NCBI GenBank assembly: GCA_048213135.1
Contig: PS015105.1
Coordinates: 152,695 to 187,424 of the forward strand
Length of the DNA stretch: 34,730 nt
Source: Reclinomonas americana ATCC 50394
Lineage: Eukaryota
Direction: 5' to 3'
Of this stretch, positions 1 through 31,774 are shown in pieces. The notes under the pieces were generated by a model. That model was not told the DNA's origin. It saw only the letters and a list, made by a program, of their open reading frames with translations, and ran no database searches. Made by a program: the position numbers and the translations under genes. Numbering within the stretch: the stretch's first letter is position 1; each line of letters opens with the position of its first letter.

Positions 1-10
1 CACGCAACAG

Positions 11-976: not shown

Positions 977-1025
977 GTGCGTGATGCCGATTAATCAGTA
1001 TTCGTCTCCCCCCGCTTTGCAACTC

Positions 1026-1752: not shown

Positions 1753-4197
1753 CGACAAACCACGACAGGAAGTACAGGTACAGGAAAATGCGAATGCCCA
1801 AGTCTGCGCGCGCACACGAACATGTCAGCGACGAAGGGGGCAAGCATGGAGAGGCGCGACGCACTCTCGGTGGCCACTGTGAATCCCATGATGTCCATAA
1901 CAAGGCCTGGAATGCATGGCAGAGCGCCACTGAGCACGGAAATGATCACTCGCCAGTTCCAGAATCCAGGGACGAAGCAGGTGGGGCACCTGCACGGGGG
2001 TGGAACATGAATTTCTTTTTTCTGACAGGGACATGCGTACACAGAAAACGACGCACCAGCGAGCTTCGTTCTCCAGCAGCTCCTTTTGTCGGATCGACGT
2101 GTACAAGTACAACTCCACAGTGTTGATGGGCGGCGCCAGGAACCAATACTCGAGCAGCATCACCACCAGCATGCCACCGGTGACCATGGATGTGGCCAGC
2201 CACCAGTCGAGCAGAATGGTCGGCGGTGCCGAGAATGCCTTCCACGGCAGCAACGACATGCCAAGGACCAGGAAAATCACCAGACTGATGCGGAACGTGG
2301 TTGGCGAGCGCCGCCGATCGGTGGTCGGACCGTCGTTGTGCGACGGTGCCACGGCCGGTGGCGTAGGCTCCAGCACATCAATGACGGCACGCGGGAACAG
2401 ATCGGCAATGACGGCGGCACACGACATGACATTCATCGACCATTCGCTCGTGACGCAGAGCAGGAGGAACAAGCTGCACAGCGCAGTGAGTAAGGAGAGA
2501 GCAAAAAATAAAGAGTGGCGTGAGAACGAAACGAGGCCATCATCATTCGGAGCCACCACTGCTGCATGGCACGCATCACATCGATTGGGTTCCACGTGCT
2601 TCCGCCCACTGTCAGCTGCATGCTGGTGACGCCGATAATGCCTGAAAAACAGATTAAATATCGGGAAGATGTGAACATGCTGGACAAGAGAGCGCACTCA
2701 CCGACAAACGCAAAACCAGTGACAAAGAGCGGCAGCAGTGCGTGACCCACAATGTGCGTGCGCTGGAACTCGGCAAAGCGTGTAAAGTCGGCCGAGCTCA
2801 ACGCCACAATGGTCATGCCACCTGCGAGCGCATGAGGAGAAAGAGAGGATTGCAGCTGGCCGTGAAAAAAAGGCACACGCACCGACAGTGATACCGACTC
2901 CAGCCATGATACCAATCATGGGAGGGAAACGTTCTGCAGCAACAGAGAATGAGGCGTTGAAAGGGGGAGCCATTCGACACCAACTGCGGGGATTGCGTAC
3001 CCGGTTCAGGAACACGAAGCAAGGAGGTGGTGGTGAGAATGTCGTTGATCGAGTACTTGGTGAGTGCCCAGGCGAGTACACCGGCCGCGAAGCCGGCCAC
3101 AAACAGCGGAACCACGTAGCCAACCAGTTTCAGAGCTGCAGCAATCGATAAGAGAGTCAGTCTGCGATCCGAGAGAGAGACCAGAAAGGCAGTGCACGAA
3201 ACCGCGGTAGCCAAAGAATGCCAGCACAAACACCATGACAACAAAGGCCAGAATGCAGCCAATCTCCGCCAGTGAGGTCGGCCCGATCGTGTTCATCACC
3301 TGCGTCACGTCGCTCTTCTTGCCCGGCAGAATCGCCTCCACACACACGAGGAGCGACAGGCCGCCAAAGTACGCCGCCACTCCAAAGCACACGAGACCAA
3401 TGCTGCCGTGCAAGAGAGTTGTCATTGGTACGCCGCCACCGCAACTCGGAGAGATCACACGCAAAGACGCAACATGGCTCGGAAGACGGTAAAGATGCGT
3501 GCGCCGTAGTAGCCAAAGAAGGAGCGAGCGTAGACCACAAACGGAATGCCGGACGCGGTGCCGACCCACCCATTCATGATGATGAGCTGGGCGCCGAACG
3601 CACTGCCGAGTCCAACCGACAGCAGCGCCTGCCACCACTTCAACCCAATCGCATCACTGATCATGCTGCCACACAGCTGCACGCGCAAACGCGAGTCAGA
3701 CACTCCCATCAATCCACTCCTCTTCTTCTCCAACAGCCGCACCATAAACACTGCTGCGCTGCCGGCCAGCGACACAACATAATTGATGTAATTACACATG
3801 TTCCAGCACCGACGATCCTTGGTGGCCGGGACCGGCTCACGGTTCTCATCGGCGCCCCACTTCAGCAACTTGTCCTTGGTCTTGTCGGGCGACGCCGACC
3901 GTCCATTGCTTCGCCGACTCGACGCCGATGTGTACGACGCATCAGTGCCGCTTCCCTGTCACAAAGACGTGAGCTAATGAGGGAGGACGACCAGTGAGTG
4001 AGTGAGTGTGAGAGAGACGCACTCCAGTCGCCGCAGAGCCATCACTGCCATCCAGCAGCGGCTGTCGCTGCTCCTCAGCGGTCTGCCTGCCAGGAGGCCA
4101 CGGACTCACTGTTGTCCACACGCACATTAGCGCAAGAGCAGAGAAGGAGAAATAACGCACAAAGAGAGAGCCCGAAAGCGATGCACTCACCTGACAT
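1753..4197 (-). CDS. NCS1 family (uracil/allantoin/thiamine-type) nucleobase:cation symporter, 3' end in gap
   Basis: ATG at 4197, about 11 introns. Motifs GLKWWQALLSVGLG...NGWVGTASGIPFVVYARSFFGYYGA, ADFTRFA, WNPIDV, LLPWK, NWRVIISVLSGALPCIPG, LYFLSWFVG and many TM helices. Confidence 0.85.
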
Positions 4198-4270
4198 GTT
4201 CCTTCGGCGCTGAGATATCTCGCGAGCAGCGGCAAATATCAGCCGACTGTCCACCACTGTCCATTGTCGA
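4198..4270. promoter_or_regulatory. Putative bidirectional promoter between divergent NCS1 and HDAC genes
   Basis: Only 73 bp between inferred start codons. Contains ACTGTCCA twice. No transcript evidence. Confidence 0.5.
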
Positions 4271-6255
4271 ATGTCGAGTGTGGCTCTGGTTGCTGGCGAT
4301 GAGCACCTGCGCCGAGCCGATCTGATGACCAGTGTGCATCCCGGTCGAGTTGCGCTTCTGTCTCGTCCTTCTCTCCTACTCTTCTCGCTTGTTTTGTGGA
4401 CTCGTTGTGTGTGCAGGCGACTGCTGTGCACTCGCTGCTGCAGGCGTACGACTTGTACCGGCATGTGCGACTGTTGGACCCGGTGCTGCCGGTCACACGA
4501 CGCATGCTGGGCGAATTTCACAGTGATGACTATGTCGATCAGTTGCTGTGCAAGCGCGATGCAGATGGTATGCAACCCACATGCTGCTTGCTTGCTTGCT
4601 GGGGGAAGGAACAGGGGAAGGGGAGGAATGAGAAGGAGAGGGAGAACAGGAAGCAAAGAAGTGGGAGAGGAGAAAGGAGAAGGATGCAAGGAAAGGACGG
4701 AACGGAACGGAAATAGGAGGAAATGGAGGTAGAAGAGGGAAGCGGGGTAATGGGAGGGATGCAAACGAGAACGATATACACACTTGCTTGCGTGCAGGTC
4801 GACCCGTCGATCGCAGCGATTCGCTGTGTGGCGATGAGGAGGATCGTGAGAGGAAAGCGACGGCGGCTGGCGAGGACGTGCTGGCGTCGTTTGGGCTCAC
4901 TGGTGACACGGCGGTGTTTGCCGGACTCAATGAGTACGTGTCGACGATTGCGGGTGGCACGCTGGCGGCGGCGCGGGCGCTGATTGAGGAGCCGTCGCTC
5001 AAGGTGGCGATCCACTGGGAGGGCGGGAGGCATCACGCCAAGCGAGAAAAGGCGAACGGCTTTTGTTTTGTCAATGATGTGGTGTTGGGCGCTCTCGAGT
5101 TGCTGGCCAGCCGGCGCTTCAGTAAGAGTGCGTTTTTTTCTTGATGGTTGGTGTCCCGAGTCGCTCGCTTGTTGCTGACACGGGGCCAGTTCTCTACGTG
5201 GACATTGACATTCATCACGGCGACGGAGTGGAGGATGCATTCTATTTTTCCGACTCGGTGTTCTGCCTGTCCTTCCATCACAACTCACCGGGCTTCTTTC
5301 CTGGTTGCGTCTGTGACTGGCAGCGGCGATTGTGGAGAGAAGTCTGACGCACAGCACACGCTCACAGGCACCGGTGAATCGTGCGACGTTGGCGACGGTC
5401 GTGGTCTTGGTCACAGTTGCGCCCGCTTGCCCATGTCCATGTTACTTTCGGCCAAGATACTCATCGCCCTCTGCCCCCCACAGCGTTGAATGTGTGTCTG
5501 CCTGAGGGCATTGACGACGCAGGGTACATTGCTTGCTTCCGAAGCGCAATCAAGGTCGTCTTCAACGTGTTCCGCCCCGATGCCATGGTGGTGGTGTGGT
5601 GAGTCGATCGAAGTGTTCGTGTGCATCGCTGCAGCGCCTCACGCAATCTCTCTGCCATTCGCAGTGGGGCCGATGCACTGGCCGGCGATCCACTGGGTTG
5701 TTTCCAGCTTACGCCACAGGCGTTGTGCACGTGCGTCGAGCGGCTGCAGAAGTACCCTGCTCCCATGCTGCTTCTCGGCGGTGGCGGGTGAGTTCTCGAC
5801 ATTTCTTCCTCTTGCGCTCAACAACCATTGTTAATGCACTGAGGCATAGATATAATACTGCCAACACGGCACGGTTGTGGACCATGGTAACCGCGAAACT
5901 CGCCGGCGTCGAGATCAGCAACGACATTCCGTGCGTCCAGCCCACACGCTGTCACGATATACGTGTTCTAACATGCATTGCAGCTCGCACGACTTGATGG
6001 AACTGTACCGACCGAGCATGCTGCTGGAGGTCAAACTCGGTGCGTTCCTTCCACCCCACCCCCGCGTGTGAGCAACCGCTGCTAACAAGTGCGTCGTGCG
6101 CAGCGTACACGGCATCGGCAGAGATTCGCAAGACCGCAAGGCTGTCGACCGAAGAATCGATCGATGAGCTGCTGGATAGGTGGGAGATTGTGGAGGATGA
6201 CGCGGAGGAGGAGGCCGCGGCGGCGGAAGCAGGCAAAGACGGCAGTGACAGGTGA
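4271..6255 (+). CDS. HDAC8: Class I histone deacetylase, HDAC8-like
   Basis: 10 exons. [14 protein letters not shown] (HDAC8-type N-terminus), [54 protein letters not shown]. Catalytic His-His, Asp/His/Asp and Tyr are intact. AATAAA overlaps the TGA. Confidence 0.9.
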
Positions 6256-6294
6256 ATAAAGATTTACGCCATCCCTTCTCTACTCGGATCTCTC

Positions 6295-7529
6295 TCAAAA
6301 AGACGCCACGCCACTCCATCGCCGCACTCGCTCGTACACGAGCCAAAAGGTGAGCGACCACGGCGCCATGCGCATCCAGCACGGAATGAAACCCTGCGCT
6401 CAATGAGCAAAGAGTCACTCAATGCCCGTGTGCGTGTGCGCTACACAGACCTTCCACAGGGACCACAGGCCCTCGGAGGCGATGGTTTTTCTCAAGCAGT
6501 CCACAGAACCAGCGTACAAAAGTCCTCGGCCGTCGGGGCCGGTTGGCTGCGACGCACACGTGAGCGGAGGAGAACGCAAGAGAAGGGGAGGACGCGAAAA
6601 AACCTGGTTCATGACTCGGCTCTTGATTACATCGGCCGGGGTTCCCACTCTGCATGCACAGTCATGCATTACGCTACGAGCACGCGCGCACAGCGAGCGA
6701 CAGACATTGGAGGAGAACGCAACGAGGCGGCCACGAGACCAGCCGCAATACTCGACAGCGTGTGTGTCACCCAGTTGTCCTTGAGCGACGTATTCCGCAG
6801 AATGCGCTGCTTCACTTGATCGTAGGTCGTCAGCTCGCCGAGATTTACAAGAGCAGCTCGCTACACGTCGACAGTCAGCATCACCACCCATACACGCAGG
6901 AGCTCGGCGACCATCATCATCACCTGCACGTTGGGCACGGCGCCCTTCCACAACGCCCTCACTCCTCCCTCGCTGTAAATCACTCGATACGCCTCCCGCG
7001 AGTTCGTATAGCGTCGCGGCTTGCCCTCCAGCACCCGGCGACCATCCATCTGCATGCGCACCTTGACCAAGTCCGTGGGCGAGGCGACCATTTGCGCCGC
7101 CGCCCCACACGTCATGCCCGTCAGCATTCCCTGCCACAGAGGCACTGTTCCCGTCGACGGATCCACATGCAAGAGGTGCGTACGTGCGGCCTCGTAGAAC
7201 GAGATGCGGCAGCCAGTGTACACCAAGTGTCGCTGAATGGCGGGCGACACACCGCGCCACAACGATCGCAGTCCTTCCTCGCGAATGATGCCCACTGCAG
7301 TGCTCACCATGCCGCGTCGCATGGTCGCATGCAGTGTACCACCTACCACACAGCACTGAGCGTGACAAGCAAGAGAGAGAGATGAGGAGAGACAGTGCAT
7401 GCCTTCGCCTTGCAACTGCAATCGCGTCTTGGTCATATCCAGCGGGTACGTCACTGTCTCGGCCACAGCGGCTGAGATGGCCGACAGCACATACTTGGTC
7501 GGCAGTGGGTCGTTCTGCCCTGTCTTCAT
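6295..7529 (-). CDS. UCP4: Mitochondrial carrier, uncoupling protein 4 (SLC25A27)-like
   Basis: Three carrier signatures ([35 protein letters not shown]) plus UCP-type [18 protein letters not shown] and [17 protein letters not shown]. 5 introns, one GC-AG. Confidence 0.88.
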
Positions 7530-7572
7530 TGCACACACACACAAACAGACGCGAGCTGATTGTCTTTTTGTG

Positions 7573-9403
7573 ATGCACTCAGGCGAGCAGTACAGCTCCT
7601 TCCCCACCGCGCCTCCAGTGCCACTGGGCACACCAATAATGACACTGGAGAGCAGCTGTGTGGATGGTTGGGTGCCGCGACAGTGGTTCCCGCAGTATGT
7701 GGTCGATCAGTCGGCACTGGCAGTGCGCGTGGCGCGCGTCAACATGATCCTCTTCTCGTCGCTCTTCATTGTGGCCTTTGGTCTGCTGTTGTACTATCGG
7801 TTTCGGCAGCAGCCTACGGTCACGCATCAGGTGCGAGTGAGTTGGAGAGGGCATTGGTGATTTGATTGACCGCGCATGTTGTTGACTGCTGGCGAGTGTG
7901 AGCAGATCTTGAATCCGACTATAGACCAGTTCAATGCCATCCTCGACGAGCATCCCTTTTGCACGGTGGCGAATCCGACCATCTCTCTCGGTGCCTTTAT
8001 GGATGTCACTGGGTCGATGGACAGCATCTGCACTGCCCTCAACAACACGGCGTTACAGACGGTGTGCACTTTCTCCCTACTTCTCTTCCTCCAACCGTGA
8101 CGTTTCTCACACACTTGGGGTGCAGATGATGAATGATCCACGAAACATTGTTGCGAAACGAGCCTGCCTTGATTGCGCCTGTTGACACTCACTCATATGT
8201 GTGATGTGCAGCCGAATAATGTGGCGCGCGGTCTGCCGGCCATCTTCAACGGCATGATCATTGTGTGCGACCTGGCGACTGGCATCTTGCAGGACTTCAT
8301 CACCTCGTTTCCACTCCGCGAGTACGCGTCGACGGCGCTGTACAGCGAGCAATCGCTGCGGGTGCAGATGGCGGCACAGTTCAACGACCTGAGCAAGTCC
8401 ACGCGTCGCATTCTGCAGCAGGTGTTGCTACCGACCAATGCACTACTGGCCGTCAATATGGTAGCCACGGGCCAAGTGGTCAGCCCCGGCTCCTTCATGG
8501 ACACGAACAATCCACCACTGTACTTCGGCACGTTTGATTCGACTTGTACGTGCCTCACCAACATGTTGCGTCGGCGATGACGGTGTATGTGAGGGGAGTG
8601 TGCTGATAGCTGACTCTTGCCGTGTGCGTGCAGGAATGTGCGTTTTGTTCTGCGTCGAGTGTGTCCGTGCAGCGCATGATTAACTCACTCACTCTCCTCC
8701 CGTGCGACGAGCAGTGCGCGAAACCGATTGTGCGTTTCTTGGTTGTTGCACTGTCGCTCTGTTGCTTGACCATCATCACCACTGTGTCTGTCTGTGCGTG
8801 CAGGTTATTTACCAGACCAACGGAAGCACCCTCAATGCGACAGTGCACTGTTTCCAGATTTTGTCGCTTCTGGAACTGGATTCACAGCAGTTGTCAAACA
8901 CTGGGCTGATCTCGTCGCCATCCGCCTTCTCCAAGGTGCAAGATGCGCTCCTGGCCGGCTTTATCAAATCGCTGGAATACACGCTTGACTTTCAAAAGTA
9001 CTATGCGGTGCGTGTGACTGCATGCAGCGACGTTGTCGCGCGATCACTGACCTGTGAAATCGCTTACAACCGGACGACGCAGGCGGTGCAGCCTCTGGAG
9101 TGTCGGTACACGACTGTGGGATGGACAGTTGCGTCGCTGCAGTTTGTTGTTCATGTCGATGACTTCCTCATCGTCCGTGCGCAGATGACGGACGCCGTCA
9201 CGGTATTGCTCGGCGTCTTTGGTGGTCTCATTGGAGTGCTGCGCATTGTCGTGCCCATGCTCTCCGCACTGGTGGTGCGCTGCTGCTGCGTGCGACGCCG
9301 CCGAGAAACCTCGCTCTTCGACGCCGCCGAATCCACGCGCAAGCTGCTGCCCGACCAGCTTGCGGCTCGAGGCGGCGCAGTGGAGGCCACCATTAATCAG
9401 TAA
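7573..9403 (+). CDS. Uncharacterised membrane protein with two TM helices and a large Cys-containing luminal loop
   Basis: 9 exons splice in frame (donors 7831, 8062, 8150, 8565, 8638, 8730, 9008, 9128). TM1 [22 protein letters not shown]2 [23 protein letters not shown]. Start could be 7573 or the next ATG near 7639. Confidence 0.75.
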
Positions 9404-9526
9404 TCAATACTATACGAGTGTTTTGCGTGTTATCGCGCTGGCAGAGATTCAACGAAACGTCGTCGTTCGTCGAGTCGTCCCTCGTTGACAGGACTGCATC
9501 TTTGTGTGCCGGAAAAACCAAAACGA

Positions 9527-9721
9527 ATGTCGTCGTCGCCGCAAGGACGCGGCAAGCAGTTTGAAGAGCACTATGTGCACGCCAAGAAGGTCAGCTCGGG
9601 CAGAGCACACGCACACGCACACTCTCAGCGCGAAGAGAGAGAAAGAGCATGGCCATGTTTCTCTTGACACACACACAAGCGCACGCAGGCAAACGAAAGA
9701 GAGAAAGTATATATGTGTCTC

Positions 9722-9770
<49 letters not shown>

Positions 9771-11536
9771 TCATGTTCGATTTTCCTCATCGCATTACTC
9801 CACCAAATTCTCGCGTGCTGTCTCTCTCTCTCCCTCTCGTCCTCCTCTCGTCTGCGCGGGAGAGTTCTGCGAGACTCTCACACACACCATGATTGTTGTG
9901 CGACATCAGGTGCCACTCTCACTGGCCTCCAAGTTGTTTCTGCTGGTGGCCTCGGTGGAGCTCGGCGGTGTGCTTCTCCTCAGCATCCTACAGCTCGTCG
10001 CGCACAATCACTGTTGCGTTTGTGTCTCCGACTGGTGCAACACCTGTTCGCTCACTCGCTCGCACTGTGGTGCTATAGATGCCATGGTCTACTATGGTGT
10101 GTCCATTGCCAGCACAGCGTATGTGAGAGGATCGATCTGACGCGTTTCGTGCACAGTTGTCTTGTTGGATGTGTCGGCGGCGTTTTTGTATTACTTTGCC
10201 ATCGACTCCAGTTGTGTTTCACTCATTCATTCGTGCGTGTGTCGTTGGTGTGTTGACGACGATGGCTGATGCACGTGCGCCACAGTCATGAAGGAAAATG
10301 TGTTTGGATTAGCCGTCTTTATCACCACCTCTGTGGTGCTCTCTGTTCGGTGCGCCTGTGCCTTGGATAAGCAGTGGTTATTGTCAGTGACGGTTGTGCT
10401 CACGTGCCTCTGCGACAGCGTCTGCTACTTCTTTATCGCGGAACGGCAAGAGAACTTGGATCAGGCCATTATCGGCATTATTGTGCTGGTGTTTGTGTGC
10501 CAGGTGGTCTACTTGCCACTGACGTACTTTGCATGGAGGTCATTCGGCTGGCGCATCTTCAAGCGTTGCGTTGATTGTGTGAGTGTGAGTGTGGGGCGGC
10601 CTTGCTGGTGCTGAATGGTACAGGATGATGCATGGTGCAGGCGTCGGCAGCGACGTCAAGATGCGCCGCCGATACAAGACGTATCAGGTGTGGCTGGCCC
10701 TTGTGCGGCTCGACACACAGTTTGCACGTGCGTTTGCTCTCTCCTCCCCCCTTGTTCATATGTGACGCACGGCTAACGGTGTGCGTGATGCGGCAGTAAT
10801 CCTCACGATCATGGCCGGCTTCTTTGTCAACTATCGGTGGTTCCTGCCGGTGGTCATCTCGTGGGCCGGCATCACCGTCATTGTGACGTTCCTCGTTGTG
10901 TGCATGCTGTGATGGTGTGGACCTGTGTTGGAGTTTATGCGCTCACTCGCGCACGCCACAGATTCCGGTTGCCGTGCGTCGTGAGCGACCCTCCTTTGTG
11001 TGGGCGTTCTTCTTCTTCCAGATTGCCATGCCCGTGTACACGATCTACAAGGTGTGATGTGAGCAGTCCTATGTGCTCATCCACGCAGAGCATGACCCGT
11101 GCGCTGTGCAGCTGGTGGCCGTGTGGAACGATCCGCAGAATACGATTCATCACGTCGATCCCGACGAGCTTGCCGACATGCAAATCACCATCACGATGTC
11201 CGGTGCGTCCACAAGCTGCTCTCCGCAGTGAGGTGGCAGAGTCTCACCGTCCTCTCCTTTCTTGACACGCGCAGTGGTAATGGCACTGGTATGCCGCGCC
11301 TTCAACATGGTGTGGACGGTCTATGTGATTCGCAACTTTGGCCGTGGACTGCGGGATGTACGTGCCCCCTCATGTCTCCTGCACTGCTTTCCCACCGTCA
11401 CTCCTGCTGATTCGCATAAACACACACACAGATCTTCTTCCAGCCGGAAGAGAAGCTGCCGTTTGCCGCCACGGCGCCTCTTGCACCGAATGGGACGACA
11501 AAAGGAACGTACAGTTCGGTGAACTCGCCTGTGTAA
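9527..11536 (+). CDS. UPF0658/DUF7789-like multi-pass membrane protein
   Basis: Spliced translation contains IDSIMKENVFGL, FGWRIFKRVGSDVKMRRRYKTYQVWLALVRLD, AVRRE and NFGRGLRD, which recall the fungal UPF0658 family pattern. About 11 introns; the first exon is less certain. Confidence 0.7.
9726..9762. repeat. (CT)n microsatellite in intron
   Basis: Direct reading. Confidence 0.95.
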
Positions 11537-11665
11537 TTAGTAGTGTGGAGAGGAGAAGAAAAAATGAAAATGTTTGGAACGAGTTTTGATACGCGCGGCC
11601 CGTGTCCATTTCTCTCGCGAAACAAAAAAGAGGCAGCAATAAAGAAAACTCACGCACTCTCACAC

Positions 11666-14185: not shown

Positions 14186-14407
14186 GTTTTTCAATGAGGC
14201 GGGACAATGCGGACAGTTACTGGCTGCCACGTCACGGGTGTTCTGTCCCAAGCGTTGTTGTGTTTTTTTGGCGCGCATACTCTGCAAAGACACACAGCAC
14301 ACACACGCCCGCCCGCGCGCATTTTGCAAGTTTGTAGAGAGGACTCGCCTCTGTGTTTGTGCGTGCACGTGTCTGTGTGAGTGGTGAGAGAGTAAGAACC
14401 GCCAACC

Positions 14408-19109: not shown

Positions 19110-19148
<39 letters not shown>

Positions 19149-22100
19149 CTGGGCCGCGTGTTTAGTGTGCGCCTGGCTCACGCACTCGCGCCGCATTAGG
19201 TGACAAGCACGGCCGATTTCGAGTGGAGCTCGCAGCTGCGCTACTACTGGAGGGAGAAGGATCTGTACATTCAGCAGGTCGAGGCCAAATTCATCTACGG
19301 CTACGAGTACCTCGGCAACACCATGCGCCTTGTGATTACGCCGCTGACCGATCGTATCTACCTCACCCTCACTGGTGCCCTGCATTTGCACCTCGGTGGC
19401 GCTCCTGCCGGCCCTGCCGGTACTGGCAAGGTGCGGAACGACGAGTTTCCTCGCTGAACAGTGGAGAGACGGAAACTCACCGATTTTTTTGTTGGTTCTG
19501 CAGACGGAGACGACCAAGGATTTGGCCAAGGCCATGGCCAAGCAGTGTGTCGTGTTCAACTGCCAGGAAGGCCTGGACTATCTGGCCATGGAGAAGTTCT
19601 TCAAGGGACTGGCTATGGCTGGTGCATGGGCTTGCTTCGACGAGTTCAACCGTATCGACGTCGAAGTGCTGTCTGTCGTCGCTCAGCAAATCACCGAGTT
19701 GCAGCGTGCCATCTCTCTCGGACTGGCGCAAATTCAGTTCGGCTCGTCGATCATTCGTGTCGATCCCTCGTTTGCCGTGTTCATCACCATGAACCCCGGT
19801 TACGCTGGCCGGTACGTGATGCTTGGCCTGTCGTTGAGTTCCCCGCCGAATACCATTGACTCATTTGCCCCCTGCAGTACCGAGCTGCCCGACAACCTGA
19901 AGGCGCTGTTCCGCCCCGTCGCGTGCATGGTGCCCGATTACGCTCTGATTGCCGAAATCCGTCTGTTCTCGTTCGGTTTCGTCGACGCCTACCGCCTGGC
20001 GCGTAAGATGGTCGCCACTTTCCGCCTCTCATCCGAGCAGCTGTCCAGTCAGGATCACTACGATTTCGGCATGCGCGCTGTGACGACTGTCATTAACGCC
20101 GCCGGTCTGCTCAAGCGTGATGATCCGAACGGTGAGTCGCGAGGAGGGGGTATTTATCTATTGGTCAGTGTGCTGATTTTACGACAGGCAATGAGGAGCT
20201 GCTGCTGCTTCGTGCGCTGCGCGATTCCAACTTGCCCAAGTTCCTCACCGACGATATCACCCTGTTCAACGGTATCATTAGCGATTTGTTCCCGGGTGTC
20301 AACTTCCCGGAGCCCGACTACGAGAACCTGCTGCGCGGCATCAACAATGCGCTGGTGCACTTCAACCTGCAACCGGTGCCTGGTTTCATTGAGAAGACGC
20401 TGCAGTTGTACGAGATGACGGTGTTGCGCCACGGCCTCATGCTTGTCGGTCCAACCGGTTCTGGCAAGACCATGTGCTACAAGGTCCTGCAGCGGTGAGT
20501 GGAGAGATACTGCTGCGACTCCCCCCTTAATCATACTGGAGACGATCCACTCACACTTCCGCCATGTTGTTGTGCAGTGCCTTGACGGAGCTGTGCGATT
20601 TGCCGCGCTACGAAAAGGTCAAGACCTTTATCCTCAATCCCAAGTCCATCACCATGGACCAGCTGTATGGTGGCTCCGACCCCATGACGCACGAGTGGAC
20701 CGACGGCATTATTGCAGTGTTGCGTACAGCTCTTTACTGGTGCCTGTGACTTCTTTCATCTATGATGCTTAAAACCACACTCGCCATCAGGCTGTTCCGC
20801 AAGGCCGTGCGTGACGATTCGCCCGACAAGAAGTGGATCATTTTCGACGGACCAGTCGACGCGCTGTGGATCGAGTCCATGAACACGGTGCTGGACGACA
20901 ACAAAAAACTGTGCTTGGTCAGTGGTGAAATCATTTCGCTGTCTCCCGAAATGACCATCATGTTCGAGGTGGAGGACTTGGCCGTCGCCAGCCCTGGTGA
21001 GTGACGCCTGTTCCCTGTCTATATCTTTGGTGGTGATTGTCACTCACTAATGCGCGCGCGCAGCTACGGTGTCTCGCTGCGGTATGGTGTACCTGGAGCC
21101 CATCATGTGTGTCGGCACTCAGGCGCAAGTGACGTCGTGGCTCAACACACTGCCGGAGGTCCTCAAGCCCTTCCGTCAGCAGCTGCAGGAGCTGTTCGAC
21201 TACTACATGGACGACGCGCTCACGTTTGTGCGCCGTAACTGCTCCGAGTACATTCCGTCGGTGCCCAACAACCGCACGGCCTCGGTGTTCCGCCTGCTGG
21301 ATTGCTTCTTCGACAAGGTTTGTGAGATTTGTTGGCTGCGCTGCGCGTTGGGTGGTTTCGTGCGCCTCAACCTGTTTTTTCTTGTTTGCCAGTTTATCGA
21401 GCGAGAAGGCGTGCCGCGCCCGCAGGCTCTGATTGACCAGCTCGCGCGCATGGTGGAGCCGCTGTTCTTGTTCTCGCTGGTGTGGGGCGCTGGCGGTTCG
21501 GTCGATGGCAAGTCGCGCACCATGTTCAATGAGTACATGCGCGGTCGCATGCGCTCCAAGGGCGTGCGCATGCCGATTCCAGAGGCCAAGAGCGTGTACG
21601 ACTGGCTCTTTGTGGAGGACACGTGTGAGTGGAAGGCGTGGATGGAGACTGAGCCTGAGTTGCGTCACTTGTCAAGGAAATGTGTGTGTGGCGAGGGTTT
21701 TCCTGATTGATGGTTGCCTGTGCAGATTTGTGCTCGACCCGAAGACCCCGTTCCAAGACATTATCGTGCCCACCACCGACACCATCCGCTACAAGTGGCT
21801 GCTGCAGCACCTGTGCACTCATGGCAAGCACATGATTGCCATTGGTCCGACCGGTACCGGCAAGACCTTGACGCTGCAGGTTGGAAATACACGTTTATGT
21901 TTGTACCATGCATGCGCGCTGACTGGCTTGGCTTGTGTTCGTGCAGGACAAACTGATGAGGGGCATGCCGGAGAGCTTTGTGCCAATCTTTATCAGCTTC
22001 TCTGCGCAGACGTCTGCCAACCAGACGCAGGACATTCTCGACGGCAAGTTCGAGAAGCGCCGCAAGGGTGAGTTTGCATGCAGTGGGCGCGAACCATCTC

Positions 22101-25100
22101 TTGCGCCTGGCACTCACGTGCGTGCTCTTTCCCTTTCGCAGGCGTGTTTGGCCCGCTGCCGGGTCAGAACTTCACCATCTTTGTCGACGACTTGAACATG
22201 CCTGCTCGTCAGCAATACGGTGCGCAGCCGCCCATTGAGCTCATCCGTCAGTGGCTCGACCACGGTGGCTGGTACGATCGCAAGTTCCCCGACGATACGC
22301 CTTTTATGCGCATCATCGACGTCAACTGGGTCGGCACTCTCGGACCGCCTGGTGGCGGTCGTAACCCGGTCACCAACCGTATGCTGCGCCACTTTAACTT
22401 TATCACCTTCCCGGAGATGAGCGACGAGTCCATGACGACTGTGTTCAGCACAATTCTCGGTGCGTGATGCGGGAAGAGCGCAAAAGAGAGAGGGACACTC
22501 ATTCCTCGTTGTGTAGGCACGTACCTTTCGGCCTACTTCCCGCCGGAGCTCGGAGCCATGTGCAAGAACATTGTCGAGGCTGCCGTCACGTTGTACAACA
22601 CCATTGTGGAGGAGTTGCTGCCGACGCCGTCCAAGTCGCACTACACGTTCAACTTGCGTGATCTGGCCAAGGTATGTTCCTAAAGCGGATGGTGGTGTGA
22701 GTCGCGCAAGTCGAGCCGCTAATATCTCTCTCACACACACTCCAGGTGTTCCAAGGCGTGCTGATGGGCGACCCGAAGACAGTGGGCGACAAGAAGGCGT
22801 TGCTGCGCCTGTGGGTGCACGAGTCGCAGCGTGTGTTCCGCGATCGTCTGGTCGACAACATCGATCGCAAGTGGTTCGACGATCAGACCGAGAAGCGGTG
22901 CGTGTGCTTCTGTCCCCCCCGTGAACTCCGCGTGATGGTCGTACTCATTTTGTGTGTCTGTATGTTGTTGCGGCTGTGCAGTCTTCGCAGCTACTTCAAT
23001 CTGGGATACAACGATCTGGGTGCCGCCGAGCGCCTGCTGTTTGGTGACTTTATGGTGCCGGGCGCCGATCCGCGCATCTACGTGGAAATCAGCGACCTCA
23101 ATCACTTGAAGTCGGTTCGTTGTCTGCGGACCTCCCAGAGTGTGTACGTGTGTGTGCACGACCTCATCCACGCTCGCAGGTGCAAGAAGAGTACATGGAA
23201 ATGTACAACGCCGTCAACTCGAAGAAGCCACTGACGCTGGTGCTCTTCTTGGACGCCATTGAGCACGTCGCGCGTATCTCGCGTGTGTTGCGCCAGCCGG
23301 CCGGCAATGCCCTTCTGCTTGGTGTGGGTGGCTCTGGTCGTCAGTCGCTGACGGCACTCGCCGCGTTCATGTCGGACTACAAGGTGTTCCAGATCGAGGT
23401 GAGTGTGTGTTGACGCGAGAGGAGAGAGACCGTGGTGGCGCTGAATGGGTTTCGTTTCCGCAGATTACCAAGAGCTACAGTGTCGCCGATTGGCATGAGA
23501 ACATGAAGACACTGCTGAAGGCCGCCGGTTGCGAAGGCCAGCAGATGGTGTTCCTGTTCTCCGACACACAGATTGTGTACGAGTCGTTCCTCGAGGACAT
23601 TAACGGCATTCTCAACTCTGGTGAGGTGCCGAACCTGTGGGAGGTCGCCGATCTGGAGGAGATTTACGGCGCCATGCGTCAGATTCTTGCCGCCGCCAAC
23701 GAGCCGGTGCGTTGACGTGCTTACTCACCCGATGCTCGCATTTGTTGCGCACAATGCTGACTGACTGTGTGCGTGTGTGGGGGTGCAGATTTCCAAGATC
23801 AGCATGATGGCACGCTTCAACAAGCGTGTGAAGCAGAATCTGCACATTGTGCTGGCCATGAGCCCTGTCGGCGAGGCCTTCCGCAACCGTCTGCGTATGT
23901 TCCCGTCGCTGGTCAACTGCTGCACCATTGACTGGTTCTCGGCGTGGCCCGATGAGGCTCTGCGGTCGGTCGCGGTTGCGCAGCTTGGCGACGTGCGCCT
24001 GGACGACTCGCTCAAGCACAACATTGGCGAGATGTGTGTGAACATTCACCAGAGTGTCGAGGAGATCAGTGTCAAGTTCTTGGCCATTCTGCGCCGCCAC
24101 AACTACGTGACGCCGACCTCGTATCTGGAGCTGCTGTCGACCTTCAAGACGCAGCTGGCGACGCAGTCGGATGCTCTCGGCAAGCAGAAGCGCCGCTTCA
24201 CCGTTGGTCTCGACAAGCTCATGTCGACCGAGGTGCAAGTCAATGACTTGAAGGTGTGTCACAACAGCAAGTCCCTGATTGTCCTGCATGATACTCAAAC
24301 TATCATATGTGTGTGCTGTGCAGGACGATCTCGTGCGCATGCAGCCGAAGCTTATCGAGACGCAGAAGCAAGTCGACGAGCTGATGGTGCAAATCGCTCA
24401 CGATACCGAGGAAGCAAGTTGCGTCGATGTGCACAGGTTGTCGGTGACAAGAGCATGGACTGATGAGAACATTGTTTCTACGCAGAGGCCACCCAGGAAA
24501 TTGTGCTGAAGGATGAAGCCGAAGCCACGGCCAAGAAGGAGGAATGCGAAAGCATCAAGGCATCTGCCGAGGCCGAGCTGTCCGTCGGTGCGTACTCTTG
24601 TTGATCGGCAATCGCCATGTTATGCTGTTGATGTATTTGTATGCTGACCTGTTTCCTTTGTGCGTAGCCTTGCCGGCTCTCGAAAAGGCGCTGGTGTCGC
24701 TGAAGGATCTGAAGGTCAATGATATTACTGAGGTCGCCAACTACACCATTCCGCCGGCTCTTGTGAAGACAACGCTGGAAGCCGTGTGTATCATGAAGAA
24801 GGTGCCGCCGAAGATGGTCGGCGAAGTCGGTAAGAAGGTGGCCGACTACTGGGACAATGCCAAGGAAATGCTGAAGAAGGCCAACTTGGTGGGTGGCGAT
24901 TGCTTCTGTTTTTCCTCACGCCGCTGTTGTTTTTGCTCATGTACGTATGTGCGTAGTTGCGTGACGAAATGATCAACTTTGACCGCGACAACATCCCCGA
25001 GGCCATCATCGTCAAGGTGCAACCGTACATTGACAACCCACAGTTCGTGCCCGACCAAGTCGCCAAGAGCTCCAAGGCTTGCACGGCCATGTGCGCCTGG

Positions 25101-25655
25101 GTGCATGCCATGTACAACTACCACCACACCAACAAGAAGTTGCGTTTGTCTGACACTTAATGGGGGTGTTGGAATAAGCAGGCACTCATGACGTATGTGC
25201 GTGTGTGCAGGATCGAACCGCTGCGTGAGGCTCTGGCCAAGGCGCAGGCCGAGCTCGACATTGTGATGGCCAGTTTGGCCAAGACCAAGGCCAAGCTGAC
25301 CGATGTGGAGAACAAGCTTGTCGATCTGCAGCTGCAGTACGACGAGAATGTGGCCAAGAAGGAGGAGCTGGAGCACCAAGTCGAGATGTGCACCAAGAAG
25401 CTGGACCGCGCCGAGCGTCTGATTGGTGGTCTCGGCGGTGAGAAGACTCGTTGGCAGGAGCAAGTGGTGCGCTTGGCGATTGCCGAGGCCAACATTGTCG
25501 GTGACGTCGTGTTGGCCTCTGGTGCCATTGCGTACGCCGGTCCGTTCACGGCCGTGTACCGTGCCGAGCTGTACCAGCAGTGGCGCTCCAAGTTGGCAGA
25601 ACTGGGGTACGTTGTCGCCAGCGTCTTTGCAAGTGGCATGTCCGTTTGTGTCTGA

Positions 25656-25688
<33 letters not shown>

Positions 25689-28368
25689 NNNNNNNNNNNN
25701 NNNNNNNNNNNNNNNNNNNNNNNNNNNNNNNNNNNNNNNNNNNNNNNNNNNNNNNNNNNNNNNNNNNNNNNNNNNNNNNNNNNNNNNNNNNNNNNNNNNN
25801 NNNNNNNNNNNNNNNNNNNNNNNNNNNNNNNNNNNNNNNNNNNNNNNNNNNNNNNNNNNNNNNNNNNNNNNNNNNNNNNNNNNNNNNNNACAGAGGAGAG
25901 GGGAAAGGGGAAGGAGGACAGAGGAGAGGGGAAAGGGGAAAGGACGACAGATGGAGGGCTTGTGTGATGTCTTCACTTGCTGTCTGTGTGGTGTCGTGTG
26001 CGTGCACTCCCGCTGTGGATGTTCTCGTGCGCGTGCGTGTCTGTGTGTGCGTGTCTGCGTGTTTGTGACTCTTGATCTCTCTTGCTCTCTTCCTCTCTCA
26101 GTTCAGGTATCCCGTGCGTGTGCGTGCTACATGTCTGGCTGGTTATTTTTCTCTATCTCATTCTTATTGTTCTTGCTGCTCCATTCACGTATTTGTTCCG
26201 GTCAATGTGCCTCACTCAATGTTGTATCGTGTTCACGTACGCTTTTGTCTAACTCCGGCCCTCTTGCATCGTCACAGTTCCCGGTCAGTGTGCTGCAGAA
26301 TGGCGTCAAGATGACCAACGAGCCGCCCAAGGGCCTGCGTGCCAATGTGCGCTCCACGTACCAGCGCTTCACCGACAAGTTCATGGAGCACTCGAAGATG
26401 TCGCAGCTGAAGCGTGTGCTGCTCGGCTTTGCACTCTTCCACGCCGTCATTCAGGAGCGCCGCAAGTACGGCCCACTTGGCTGGTGCGTAGATTGTTGGC
26501 GGTGGAGAGAAATAATGAGACGGTCGCCACTCACTCGCCAATCGTGCAGGAACATTCGCTACGAATTCACCACTGGTGACATGCTCTGTGGTGTGAGCCA
26601 GCTGCGTCTGCTGTTGGACCAGTACGAGGAGCCGCCATACAAGGTCATCAAGACCCTCGTCGGTCACATCAACTATGGTGGTCGTGTGACAGACGACTGG
26701 GATCGCCGCGCGCTGATGACGCTGCTCGACGGTGTGTATTGCCACTCGTCCCCCCATTTGCATGGCTCGCATTGACTCACCATTGTCTGTGGCTGTGCAG
26801 ACTTTGTTGGCGCGAAGCAGCTGGAGCTCGGTTACCAGTACACCCCGGTGCCAGAGTACTATGTGATTGAGAAGGAGACACAGCGCGAGTACCTCGACTG
26901 GATCCAGGAGCTGCCGATCAAGGCTGGTACGTGACGGGGACAGCGATGTGGTGCAATGCATTGGTTGTGTAGATTACGGTGCTCAACCTCCACACACAGA
27001 CCCGCAAGTGTTTGGTCTGCATGAGAATGCCGATATCACTTGTGCGCAGGCCGAGTCGTACGGCATGCTGGAAACGATTCTCTCACTGCAAGCACGGTTC
27101 GTGTGTGTGTGTGTGTGTACGCCTGCATAGTGTGTGCTGCCAAAGGCACTCAACTGTGCTCGTCTCCTTCGCCTCCACAGTGTGGCCACCAGCGGTGGAC
27201 GCACACGCGAGGATGTGATTGGTGAGACCGCCAAGGAGATCCTCGACCGCCTACCGCCTGCATTCGACATTGAAATGGTGGCGGCCAAGTACCCGACGAC
27301 GTACACGGAAAGCATGAACACTGTGTTGTTGCAGGAGGTGTGTGTTGCCAGCTGTTTGTGTTGACATGTATGTGTGTGTGTGAGTTACTCACTGTTCCCT
27401 TCGCGCCACACGCACACAGGCCATTCGTTACAACCGACTGATTATCATCATGAAGAAGACGCTGCCGGAGCTGCTCAAGGCTCTGAAGGGTCTGGTGGTC
27501 ATGAGTGAGCAGCTGGAGAAAATTGCCAGCGGCATCTTTATCAACCGCGTTGCGTCACCACCGTCATCGTGCTATCGACCAGATGGCCATTGCGCTCATT
27601 TCTATCTGTGCGTTTGTGCAGGTGCCTGTGGCTTGGGCGGAGAAGGCGTATCCGTCACTCATGCCTCTCGCCTCGTGGTACGAGGATTTGTTGAAGCGTC
27701 TGCAATTCATTCAGGTGCGCCGACCGTAGCTTGTGGCTGACATCGAGGTCAAAGGTTACTGACTGACTGTATTCTTGTTTGTGACAGTCGTGGTACGACC
27801 ATGGCNNNNNNNNNNNNNNNNNNNNNNNNNNNNNNNNNNNNNNNNNNNNNNNNNNNNNNNNNNNNNNNNNNNNNNNNNNNNNNNNNNNNNNNNNNNNNNN
27901 NNNNNNNNNNNNNNNNNNNNNNNNNNNNNNNNNNNNNNNNNNNNNNNNNNNNNNNNNNNNNNNNNNNNNNNNNNNNNNNNNNNNNNNNNNNNNNNNNNNN
28001 NNNNNNNNNNNNNNNNNNNNNNNNNNNNNNNNNNNNNNNNNNNNNNNNNNNNNNNNNNNNNNNNNNNNNNNNNNNNNNNNNNNNNNNNNNNNNNNNNNNN
28101 NNNNNNNNNNNNNNNNNNNNNNNNNNNNNNNNNNNNNNNNNNNNNNNNNNNNNNNNNNNNNNNNNNNNNNNNNNNNNNNNNNNNNNNNNNNNNNNNNNNN
28201 NNNNCTAGAAAGGAAGAGAGAGAGAGAGAGATGGTGGATGTTCATGGATATGATAAACGAGTGACTGACGATCTCTTCCTTGTGTGCCCTCTGCAGTTGC
28301 CATCGGCGCAACCCGACAGCCACTGGATCAAGCGTGGTGTGGCGTTGTTCTGTGCACTAGACTTTTGA
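14408..28368 (+). CDS. DNAH1: Axonemal inner-arm dynein heavy chain, DNAH1-like; interrupted by three assembly gaps
   Basis: N-terminal [14 protein letters not shown]-loops [41 protein letters not shown]; coiled-coil stalk and MTBD; C-terminus [15 protein letters not shown]. More than 40 introns; first coding exon is ATG only. Confidence 0.93.
17344..17557. other. Assembly gap inside dynein gene
   Basis: N run. Confidence 0.99.
19112..19146. repeat. (GT)n microsatellite starting at the intron donor
   Basis: Direct reading. Confidence 0.9.
25658..25889. other. (GT)n run into assembly gap (N 25689-25889) inside dynein gene
   Basis: GT repeat followed by N run. Confidence 0.97.
27806..28204. 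other. Assembly gap inside dynein gene
   Basis: N run. Confidence 0.99.
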
Positions 28369-28479
28369 GCTGTAGTTTGTTTTTTTGTGTTTTTTCCCCA
28401 TACTCTGTTTATGCAAACAAAGAAAAAGTGTACACATTTTCCCCCCTTTCATTAGTTGTGCATTGATGATGATTGATGA

Positions 28480-29776
28480 TTACAGTGGCGTCAGGTATCC
28501 GTTGGACTTGTTGAGGACGGTGAGCTCCTCCACAAAGTCTTCGGCGCGCAACTCACCGTGCGCCATGAGGTCCAAGATCTCCTCCGTGGTGAACCACGAG
28601 GCTTGCAACGAGTCCAAATCGGCCTGAGTAGGAACATGTCAACTCATGGATACAATCGATTACCAGTGTGCGCAACGAGCAGCGTCACTCCACCTCTTCA
28701 ATGGTCTTCAGTGTGCCGCCAGTCAATCTAATGCAGCACCACGCAGTGTCAGAAAAAGAAGCAGTGACGGAACAAGGGGAAACAAACTCACTTGCCCGTC
28801 ACCGCAATCCGCAGCCAGTCTTGGTCACCTGCGCGCGCTACATTGGTGAGCACAACTCACACAGACTGACGCCCTCACCCGCATTCATGCGCACCACTGT
28901 AGTGGGTGACCTTGACAATGTGCGTCGGCTTCAGGTCCATGCCGGCCTCGGCTTTGCAACATCTGATCGCCGCGTCGGGGAACGTCTCGCCCACGTTGAC
29001 TTGCGCGGCAGGAGCGTACCATCTGGTGTTCACGGGGATCGTGAGGAAGGGAGATAGAGGGAGAAGGAGAGGGAGAGGGAGAGGGAGAAGGAGAGGGGTG
29101 AAGAGAGAGAAGCGAATGAAGAGAGAGGAAGAGAGAGCACATATGAGAGAGGCTAGGGACAGATGCATGCAAGCAGAGTGAAGAGCCAGCAGAGGAAGGG
29201 GCATGCGAGTAGTGCGGGAGGAGCCAGGAGATCATCACAGAGGGGGAAGAAGAAGGACAGAAGCATGCAAGCAGAGAAGGAGCGGAGCAGAGAACAAGTG
29301 AAGGAGAAGCAGACAGGAAGAGAAAGGAATTGACAGAATTATGCAACCACGGCACAGAAGGGGAGAAGACGAGGAGAAGAAGGGAGAAATAGTATCGAAG
29401 CATTATGGCAGACAGAGGAAAAAGCAAGCAGAGAACGAGTGAAGGAGAGGGAGAAAGGAAGGGAATGGAAAAGGGGACGAAGCATGCAAGCAGAGAGAAG
29501 GAGCGGAGCAGAGAACGAGTGAAGGATAGGGAGAAAGGAAGGGAATGGAAAAGGGACAGAAGTATGCAAGCAGAGAAGGAGTGGAGCAGAGAACAACAGT
29601 GAGAGACAGAGAGGAGAAGGGACAGAAGCATGCAAGCAGAGAGGGGAAGAGCCAGCACAGAACGACATGGAGAGAAGGAGAGGGGGGAAGAGAGAAAAAG
29701 GAGCAGCGAACAACAGAGAGAGACAGAGAGGAGAAGGGACAGATGCAAGAAGAGAGGGGTGTGCCGGCAGAGAACA

Positions 29777-29815
<39 letters not shown>

Positions 29816-30412
29816 AATGGAAAAGGGACGAAGCATGCACGCAGAGAAGGAGCGGAGCAGAGAACAAGTGAAGGAGAAGCAGACAGAGAGGAGAAGGGAC
29901 AGAAGTATGACCAGAGAGGTGAACAAGCAGAGAACGGCACAGAACGGCACAGAAGGGGAGAAGGCGAGGAGAAGAAGGGAGAAGAAGGATAGAAGCATAA
30001 AAGCAGAGAAGGAAGAGCCAGAACAGATCGACACAGAAAGGAGAACGACAGAGGAGAAGAAGAAGATGTGAGAGAATGACAGAAACCAACAAGCAGGCAT
30101 GCGACAGGCACACCGCTGACGCAACTTGCCACGCGACGACTCCTACGATGCGCATATGTGTCCAAGAAAAAGCACGGAGAGACAAAGATTCGATGTTGGT
30201 GGACAGCGACACACACACAGACGCAGGAACAAGCACACACCTTGGACTCTTGAATGAGGAGCATGCGTCCTTCATCGTCCTTGATGATGCACGACACGAT
30301 CAGGCGTCTGCGCACACGCACACACGCACAGTCAGGTTGTCATGAGTGACAGGAATGATTGGGGCGACGACGGATTCGGCAACCCGCCGCCTTGTTGCCC
30401 ATCAATGCGGTC
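28480..30412 (-). CDS. Nudix hydrolase NUDT18 (8-oxo-dGDP phosphatase)-like with degenerate Nudix box; 5' end unresolved
   Basis: RLIVSCIIKDDEGRMLLIQESK-ESSRGK-WYAPAAQVNVGETFPDAAIRCCKAEAG...WLRIAVTGKLTGGTLKTIEEADLDSLQASWF parallels the NUDT18 motifs LLIQEAK/WYLPAG/TGGILKT/ESLQAAW. Confidence 0.75.
29160..30070. repeat. Degenerate purine-rich (plus strand) minisatellite in the 1.1 kb Nudix intron
   Basis: Recurring blocks GAAGCATGCAAGCAGAGAAGGAGCGGAGCAGAGAAC(A/G)AGTGAAGGA and GAGGAGAAGGGACAGA, with a (GA)n run at about 29784-29812. Confidence 0.8.
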
Positions 30413-31045
30413 GCCTCGCGCAAAGAGAATCGCATCCACGAGCGTATCACACACATATACACATACACACACGAGGAGCACACGAGCACAGGAAAAGGGA
30501 GGAGGAGGAGGAGGAAGAGGGAGAGAGGAGTGTATCACGAACACACAAAGGCAACAGAGAAACGCAACACTCGATGCATGGTGTGTTGGAAAAACTGGGA
30601 GACAGCCGGCTGAGCGAGCGAGAGAGTGAGAGAGTGTGTGAGTGGCGCAGACAGCGAAGAGAGAGAGAGAGAACACAGGGCGTGTCCGCGCTGTGTTTTG
30701 TGTGTGTGCGCGCAGAGTCACAGTGTGCGCAACTGTGGAGAGAGCACTGGTGCGAGAGTCAACGAGCGCGGAAGGTGTTGAAGGGGTGGTGTGCGATGAA
30801 AGAAAGCAACGAGAGCAGAGCAACGAGTGCGCACAACACGTGAGCGACTGATTGATTGATTGGTGCGTTCGAAGTCTCGGATCCGGACGCCTTGCGAAGG
30901 CAGCGCTGTGCTTATCCCTGCGCCACAGTGCAGATGCATCTAACGAAGCGTCACCCCGAATAATGTCCACATCTCCATTCTCTGTACACTCATTTTTCTA
31001 CGTTTTTTCAACCTTGTTGCATTGCAAGTCGGGTCCCGTCCTCGT

Positions 31046-31774
31046 TTACACCGCAATGGCCTGCGTTCCGTGGCCCACGCTGCTCTTCAACACCTTGCGC
31101 AGGTTGGCAAGCAGCTGCGGGAATTTCGGGGAAATGAGCACACGCGCAGAGGGTGTTATCAAAATGAAGAGGCACTTGTCACGACGCAACGTTGTAGTGG
31201 AAGTCAAAGTACTCCTCAAAGGTGATCTTGCCGTCGTGGTTGGCGTCCAGCTCGCTGTGGATGGCCAAGCGTTTGCGTGAGCGAGTGAGAGAGACTGAGA
31301 GAGCAGAGAGTGAAAAACGCACGAAAAGTGCTTGTTCACGTGCTCCTCCTGATCCGGCGTCAGCGCGCTGGCGCTGCTCTGCTTGGTCCAGTAGTTGGCA
31401 AAGAGGCGACGCTGTGACACACAACGCGTACGTGGTGGTGTGTGAGAGACGCCACAGTCACACACACACATTGTTGTCGCGCGCACGACGTACCAGCTCA
31501 GCGATTTCGAGCGTCTGGTTGCGGTCGGCGTCGATGAGGTCGAACTCCATGCGGCAGTCGCTCTTCAGGCGCTGTTTTGTGCGGTGGGAGAGGTGAGAAG
31601 GGATGATGTGCGGCACGCGTCGTGGAGAGGAGGAGAAGAAAACGCAACGTCAACGTTGGTCAGCTGCTCGTCGAGCCATTGGATCTGCGTGGTGAGAGGT
31701 GAGGGGGTGAGAGAGAGAGAGAGGGTGGCGAGTGGGAAGGTGGGAGAGGGAGACGAAACGTAAGCGTCAGACAT
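31046..31774 (-). CDS. Small two-EF-hand calcium-binding protein (~115 aa)
   Basis: 6 exons give MSDAYIQWLDEQLTNVDRLKSDCRMEFDLI-DADRNQTLEIAE-...-DANHDGKITFEE-YFDFHYNLLANL...AIAV*, with two 12-residue EF loops. Confidence 0.85.

Follow-up and report, generated by a model that had tools for sequence, protein, structure and literature searches.

Can a spliceosome routinely use 5' splice sites in which the donor consensus is offset from the cut by one base? The question is raised by a 34,730-nt stretch of DNA from Reclinomonas americana ATCC 50394 (contig PS015105.1, positions 152,695 to 187,424 of the forward strand; the whole stretch is referred to below as the window). A first-pass annotation, made from the letters alone, had proposed that many of its introns start with GTTGCGT rather than with the GTGCGT, GTGAGT, or GTGTGT of ordinary donors. 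Apart from the GU, no intron base is normally better conserved than the G at +5; in GTTGCGT this position is held by a C, and the familiar signal appears one base farther into the intron. The window has ∼55% G+C, includes four runs of N, and is intron-rich, with usual introns that are short (53-90 nt). Here, we place its introns by protein homology, compare the displaced donors (GTTGCG, GTTGAG, and GTTGTG) with ordinary ones, and weigh how the displaced donors might be recognized.

Results

Homology-placed introns include a large displaced class

Introns were placed with a protein-to-genome spliced aligner that required a starting GT (or a penalized GC) and a final AG and had no other knowledge of donors. 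The query homologues were five full-length dyneins, eight HDAC8 proteins, nine UCP4-like proteins, and the eight best-scoring dynein-tail proteins. This procedure yielded 50 introns, 12 of which (24%) were of the displaced class, 11 starting with GTTGCG and one with GTTGAG; the earlier estimate of a major class was ∼20% of introns. The dynein motor region accounted for 34 introns, including six that start with GTTGCGT, HDAC8 for eight, including three that start with GTTGCG, and the UCP4-like carrier for four firm introns. Individual displaced introns and the homologues that support them are listed in Table 1.

The junctions themselves were well behaved. The spliced dynein and HDAC8 reading frames were free of stop codons, and at all 10 inspected junctions the homologues aligned without gaps through conserved motifs, in agreement with the annotation's statement that cleavage at the GT restores frame and motifs in these two genes. 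In local realignments, 29 of 30 runs took the displaced-class site, and a ban on that site cost 2 to 21 score units; the usual runner-up was a GC located three bases downstream, which adds one residue per junction. Among the 25 displaced donors proposed from the sequence, 12 were therefore chosen by homology, one (17147) had its acceptor but hardly its donor agreed on by homologues because the exon end there is an insertion relative to them, and the other 12 were consistent with an open reading frame only.

Support for a few other introns was uneven. The HDAC8 intron at 4568 was recovered with only two of eight homologues, and a ninth HDAC8 intron (6040) rests on reading-frame logic. The dynein-tail intron at 15978, with donor GTACGG, was placed by all eight tail homologues. 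The donor of the dynein intron at 23707 was agreed on by four of five homologues, and three favored an acceptor 9 nt beyond the one recorded, which leaves the donor counts unaffected.

The displaced motif is overrepresented and strand-biased

All 22 GTTGCG sites of the earlier list, together with GTTGAG at 16897 and GTTGTG at 10211 and 10895, were found on the strands assigned to them, and the count of T at +7 was likewise reproduced (22 of 25, the exceptions being C at 4349, C at 5416, and A at 8150). GTTGCG occurs 51 times in the window versus 31.5 ± 5.7 times in dinucleotide-preserving shuffles of it, and GTTGCGT occurs 23 times versus 7.5 ± 3.1 times, a count that none of 100 shuffles reached. 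On the gene map the ratio of sense to antisense occurrences was 22:1 for GTTGCGT and, for comparison, 55:21 for GTGCGT. The commonest donor hexamers among the first 47 introns were GTTGCG and GTGCGT (10 each), then GTGAGT (8) and GTGTGT (5). A donor model with independent positions, the comparison that the annotation had suggested, was run within the window on these 47 introns; it predicted 0.21 GTTGCG donors where 10 were seen (P = 1.3e-14), placing the class far above expectation.

Displaced donors lack the exon-final G and require a C

The most conspicuous feature of the displaced class lies in the exon. An exon-final G was present in only one of 12 displaced introns as compared to 35 of 38 others (Fisher P = 1.1e-7). 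The -1 base of the displaced class was A in 6/10, resembling the ordinary -2 base (A in 15/37), and the -1 position fits the ordinary -2 profile. Within the intron, T at +7 in eight of 10 displaced sites parallels T at +6 in 32 of 37 ordinary sites, so that the proposed move of the GCGT block from +3 through +6 to +4 through +7 is borne out by GTTGCGT versus GTGCGT and by the +7 T. When both are written as seven-letter words, only one position distinguishes G/GTGCGT from /GTTGCGT (slash, cut).

The base that precedes the displaced GT was C at 10 of 10 sites (22/25 for the listed sites) versus 14 of the 31 ordinary sites with G at +5 and T at +6 (P = 0.002). Ordinary sites had C at +4 in 16/37 versus a background of 23% (P = 0.005). 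Only three ordinary donors were without an exon-final G (5128, 5931, and 18795, all on the plus strand), and because each of them reads exactly GTGCGT, this sequence suggests itself, rather than GTGAGT, as the probable strongest intron-side signal in this organism.

By other measures the displaced introns looked ordinary. Their 3' ends read CAG in 12 of 12 (the GT...AG ends being partly a product of aligner construction), 8/12 had a branch-like CTSAY 19 to 29 nt before the 3' end, versus 31/38 ordinary introns, and the lengths of 64 to 82 nt match those of ordinary introns. No conservation was evident past +8 in the 22 GTTGCG introns, where the information content between +9 and +40 never rose above 0.47 bits. 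As judged from these alignments and counts, the data show that a displaced class exists, is frequent, has positions that are not independent of one another, lacks the exon-final G, and has ordinary 3' ends. It makes up roughly one-fifth to one-quarter of introns.

Several further donors and motif occurrences were recorded in the aligned genes. Weak-looking donors in the UCP4-like carrier (6394-6923, minus strand) read GTTTTTTCG (6603), GTCTGTG (6450), and GTGATG (6923); each is placed by eight or nine of nine homologues and preceded by an exon-final G. The dynein intron at 21880-21946 (plus strand), found with five of five homologues, starts with GTTGGAAAT after CAG and departs from the ordinary and displaced motifs alike. 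Unused GTTGCGC or GTTGCGA occurs inside conserved dynein exons at 20423, 23287, 23528, and 23975 (plus strand). GTTGCGT is absent within those exons; at 24956 the G is the last base of an intron and only TTGCGT is exonic.

Sites that rest on reading frame

All frame-compatible GT/GC...AG pairs were also enumerated without regard to donor sequence; the score drew solely on codon usage, an acceptor matrix, and a branch motif. Of 43 known introns, 37 came out at rank 1. It was applied to 17 sites, namely the 12 listed sites that depend on reading frame plus 76, 16331, 16649, 16897, and 17147; the claimed donor was at rank 1 in seven cases, rank 2 in five, and lower in five. Given these mixed ranks, the 12 reading-frame sites are graded as consistent with use as donors but unproven. 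Of the GTTTCG donors, suggested to represent the shifted form of GTTCGT, the site at 16331 has homologue support, and that at 76 is consistent with an open reading frame only. For 13490, 31190, and 31648, a Pfam search with translations of the flanking exons was uninformative about the junctions. An ab initio parser based on codon usage only was too noisy, splitting dynein and HDAC8 wrongly, and was dropped.

Some of these sites have unusual surroundings. The candidate mini-exons at 8126-8149 and 9083-9127 could be alternative exons or no exons at all because both can be skipped in frame. The NUDIX intron at 29023-30125 is far longer than usual, pyrimidine-rich on the gene strand, and contains tandem repeats of 80 and 117 nt. 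It adjoins a 17-nt micro-exon (30126-30142, minus strand) that encodes ESSRG plus two bases and apparently lies between GTGTGT and GTTGCGT introns; the residue count to NUDIX profile position 31 fits, and the exon that follows the 30125 intron begins exactly at that position (E 0.004, below the Pfam cut-off).

Gene content of the window

The genes identified by Pfam and homologue searches are included in Table 1. The closest matches were 58% identical for HDAC8 (fungi and ticks) and 61% identical for UCP4 (molluscs), and the two nearest partial proteins were 78 to 85% identical; homologue searches with the window proteins returned none of ≥90% identity. An Rfam scan of the window gave no match. 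Metagenome dynein loci (L001-L016) were left out because, at only ∼50% identity, they are too distant for their introns to be compared. The runs of N are located at 1026-1674, 17344-17557, 25689-25889, and 27806-28204, three of them inside the dynein gene, and they conceal at least one intron plus some coding sequence. At the 5' end of the dynein gene a candidate intron directly follows the start codon (ATG/GTAAGT, 14408-14416, plus strand), and a candidate GC-AG intron (CAG/GCATGT, 14698, plus strand) lies in the poorly conserved 5' part.

Table 1. Genes and introns of the window. Fractions of homologues refer to alignments that chose the donor unless stated otherwise; rank a/b is the position of the claimed donor among b candidates in the donor-blind enumeration.
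Feature	Coordinates	Strand	Donor	Evidence and remarks
RagA GTPase gene	1-995	+		Pfam/homologue searches
HDAC8 gene	4271-6260	+		Pfam/homologue searches
UCP4-like mitochondrial carrier gene	about 7530-6298	-		Pfam/homologue searches
Unnamed membrane-protein genes (two)		+		Pfam/homologue searches
PA/M28 peptidase gene		-		Pfam/homologue searches
Axonemal dynein heavy chain gene	about 14408-28365	+		Pfam/homologue searches
NUDIX gene		-		Pfam/homologue searches
EF-hand gene		-		Pfam/homologue searches
HDAC8 intron	4349-4416	+	GTTGCGC	4/8 homologues, other 4 alignments begin downstream; gapless HPGR/ATAVHSL
HDAC8 intron	5304-5367	+	GTTGCGT	7/8 homologues; junction restores FFPG/TG
HDAC8 intron	5416-5483	+	GTTGCGC	7/8 homologues; gapless junction
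UCP4-like carrier intron	6650-6723	-	GTTGCGT	9/9 homologues; junction GLVAAS/VGTPADV
Dynein tail intron	16649-16725	+	GTTGCGT	8/8 best tail homologues
Dynein tail intron	16897-16974	+	GTTGAGT	8/8 best tail homologues
Dynein intron	17827-17908	+	GTTGCGT	5/5 full-length dyneins; donor ban costs 16-19 score units
Dynein intron	20719-20790	+	GTTGCGT	5/5 dyneins; gapless junction
Dynein intron	21659-21725	+	GTTGCGT	5/5 dyneins
Dynein intron	24418-24485	+	GTTGCGT	3/5 dyneins; weaker, coiled-coil stalk; 1/3 local runs prefers GT 11 nt downstream
Dynein intron	25139-25210	+	GTTGCGT	5/5 dyneins
Dynein intron	27549-27621	+	GTTGCGT	5/5 dyneins; gapless junction
Dynein tail intron	16331-16408	+	GTTTCGT	Shifted form of GTTCGT; 4/8 tail homologues; rank 1
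Dynein tail intron	17147-17228	+	GTTGCGT	Acceptor 8/8, donor 1/8; rank 1/34
Intron of unnamed gene	3403-3473	-	GTTGCGT	Rank 1/9
Candidate intron	8150-8211	+	GTTGCGA	After 24-nt mini-exon (8126-8149); rank 2/5
Unnamed membrane-protein gene intron	8565-8659	+	GTTGCGT	Rank 1/6; acceptor uncertain
Candidate intron	9128-9184	+	GTTGCGT	After 45-nt mini-exon (9083-9127); rank 3/9
Candidate intron	10013-10078	+	GTTGCGT	Rank 2/36
Candidate intron	10211-10285	+	GTTGTGT	Rank 2/23
Candidate intron	10565-10640	+	GTTGCGT	Rank 4/42
Candidate intron	10895-10961	+	GTTGTGT	Donor rank 1, acceptor at 10961
Candidate PA/M28 peptidase intron	13414-13490	-	GTTGCGT	Rank 8/68; in-frame alternatives 48 and 57 nt upstream
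NUDIX gene intron, 1.1 kb	29023-30125	-	GTTGCGT	After 17-nt micro-exon; enumeration not decisive
Candidate first intron of NUDIX gene	30308-30568	-	GTTGCGT	11 bases past ATG; in-frame start MHRVRLIVS...; absent from earlier list, maybe a 26th site
EF-hand gene intron	31115-31190	-	GTTGCGT	Rank 1/19 (reading frame only)
EF-hand gene intron	31572-31648	-	GTTGCGT	Rank 2/24; GTTGAC 6 nt upstream is rank 1
RagA gene intron	76-152	+	GTTTCGC	Rank 1/43, margin 0.3

Discussion

We favor, with a probability of about 55%, the interpretation that the displaced donors belong to ordinary U2-type GT-AG introns whose 5' signal is offset by one base from the point of cleavage and that such introns are used as a major class. 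The common class would carry the signal G/GUGCGU and the second class N/GUUGCGU. If U1 small nuclear RNA (snRNA) binds GGUGCGU and GUUGCGU alike, as the inferred pairing has it, then the intron's first G would occupy the place usually taken by the last exon G, which would make the latter dispensable, and catalysis would use the only GU present, one base upstream of the cut in the usual register. The loss of the exon-final G argues for such a shifted register over a simple inserted or bulged T. The frequent class above an independent-position model, reported by the first-pass annotation, is real, and its analogy with the shifted or bulged U1 pairing of mammals is apt; the variant snRNA that it invoked is kept as a minority reading because the near-exclusive GCG form is unexplained by textbook U1 pairing.

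Several observations weigh against this interpretation. At the -3 and -2 exon positions the unshifted profile does slightly better than the shifted one (+3.9 versus -4.7 bits, 25 sites), so that U1 may instead pair with the -1 base, or a U at +2/+3, bulged out. The textbook U1 5' end pairs poorly with the displaced donors, the predicted energies being +0.5 to -2.6 kcal/mol for 10 GUUGCGU sites versus -1.1 to -10.1 kcal/mol for 13 ordinary sites, and it favors GUUGAGU over GUUGCGU (-4.0 versus -1.4 kcal/mol), opposite to the observed preference for C. Finally, all 50 introns come from a single 35-kb window, and the aligner excludes donor dinucleotides other than GT and GC by construction.

These same points feed two explanations in which the register or the reader differs, both of which we consider improbable, though worth carrying along. 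The displaced motif is exactly an ordinary donor with one T added, and U1 might pair with it in the ordinary register while one U (+2 or +3) is bulged out, corresponding to the "consensus plus one T" of the earlier description and to the human bulge +2/+3 register, which has been validated for human sites (PMC4856993). The somewhat better unshifted fit at -3 and -2 agrees with such a bulge; however, the exon-final G should still pair and be kept, whereas it is nearly absent from the displaced class, and the duplexes predicted with textbook U1 are very weak. Alternatively, the reader of the 5' splice site may itself have changed, either through a U1 5' end that pairs with G-C-G-U (G and C replacing two pseudouridines) or through an additional U1 or U6 paralogue with complementarity to GUUGCGU. 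To our knowledge, all known U1 RNAs carry two pseudouridines at the positions in question. With such a changed reader, G-C-G-U would be the true optimum and the two registers could exist side by side, the shifted class being sustained at about one-quarter of introns. The strict C before the displaced GT, the enrichment of C at +4 in ordinary sites, and the GTGCGT sequence of all three ordinary sites that are without an exon-final G point in this direction. Moreover, a hypothetical U1 5' end matching GGUGCGU reproduces the C preference, as it pairs better in the shifted register with GUUGCGU than with GUUGAGU (-7.5 versus -1.8 kcal/mol). Against a changed reader, GTGAGT and GTGTGT nearly match GTGCGT in number among ordinary sites. 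For Ostreococcus, with its GTGCGTG donors, Irimia and Roy considered this possibility too (PMC2483917), but even GC-rich algae whose donors are unusual, namely Aureococcus and two Micromonas, have a U1 5' end identical to the consensus (PMC3033335).

It is much harder to attribute the class to error or to shared ancestry. Misplaced junctions, with the true donor being a GC three bases on (GTT/GCGT...) or some nearby site, or a gene-model or assembly artefact, would be in keeping with the in-frame GTT/GC path that often comes next when GT is banned and with the 11 to 12 of 25 listed sites that depend on reading-frame logic. We regard this as very unlikely: the +3 option inserts one residue at all 10 conserved junctions whereas the GT is gapless at every one of them, the 22:1 sense bias and the distinct -1 profile are unlike modeling noise, and a run of two T is no typical assembly error. 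Hardly more probable is a burst of introners, in which one intron-generating mobile element ending in GTTGCGT had seeded these introns and the motif would reflect ancestry rather than a mode of recognition. The motif is indeed tight, nearly invariant over seven bases, and its exon context is unlike that of ordinary sites, but the lack of conservation past +8 gives no hint of a repeated element, the 3' ends have no distinctive sequence in common, and the lengths are ordinary. U12-type introns carry a strict RTATCCTT-type 5' motif with a matching branch site. None of the 22 GTTGCG introns shows this type of motif or branch site, and the 3' ends and branch-like motifs match those of the ordinary class. 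The resemblance to U12-type introns is limited to a second class with a strict 5' motif beside a major class, with a 5' motif and branch site unrelated to those found here.

The closest precedents for the shifted register come from mammals; in human, shifted sites number a few dozen. As in the window, those sites have a GU followed by U, a consensus displaced by one base, a cut at the upstream GU, and a presumed U1 pairing that is offset by one base (Roca and Krainer 2009, as summarized in PMC4856993). They differ in being rare in human, as compared to 12 of 50 introns here, and in carrying the human optimum AAGU, whereas the displaced block here is almost exclusively GCGU, which textbook U1 does not favor. 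An extra U likewise separates the GU from the paired block in the bulge +2/+3 register described in human (Roca et al. 2012; Tan et al. 2016, PMC4856993). This register cannot be distinguished from the shifted one by intron sequence alone, yet it should keep the exon-final G that the class here is without. According to that source, only 68 (0.03%) of 201,541 sites in human use it, all non-canonical registers together make up 2.1%, and both the shifted and the bulge +2/+3 registers have been demonstrated experimentally in human cells. The same text describes U1 binding away from the cut, with U6 setting the site; as proposed here, the U1-marked site stands apart from the cut, but the cases are a few individual or engineered ones rather than a genome-wide class. 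Ostreococcus, also with a GC-rich genome, shares the C optimum at +4 in its GTGCGTG donors, and the authors ponder snRNA changes; its intron-poor genome has a single unshifted consensus, and no second, displaced class is described in the accessible part of the report (PMC2483917). Our literature searches (for the motif, for shifted base-pairing and registers, and for U1 5'-end conservation) found no abundant displaced donor class reported in any organism, the original 2009 and 2012 Roca papers and supplementary files being outside their coverage; for the motif they yielded nothing but primers and unrelated RNAs. Rare human shifted and bulged sites are known; what appears new here is displaced donors as a major class, with loss of the exon-final G and a demand for C.

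A genome with C at +5 in about one-quarter of its introns, and with the signal displaced, would offer a natural system for asking how the position of the cut is set with respect to pairing by U1 and U6, a question so far studied only on rare human sites and engineered constructs. There is a practical consequence as well. Gene finders with fixed-register donor matrices would miss or misplace about one-quarter of the introns here, and most gene models with several exons would be broken as a result; at least eight displaced-class introns occur in the dynein gene alone. The strict C before the displaced GU, unexplained by textbook U1 pairing, provides a concrete reason to inspect the snRNA genes of this organism.

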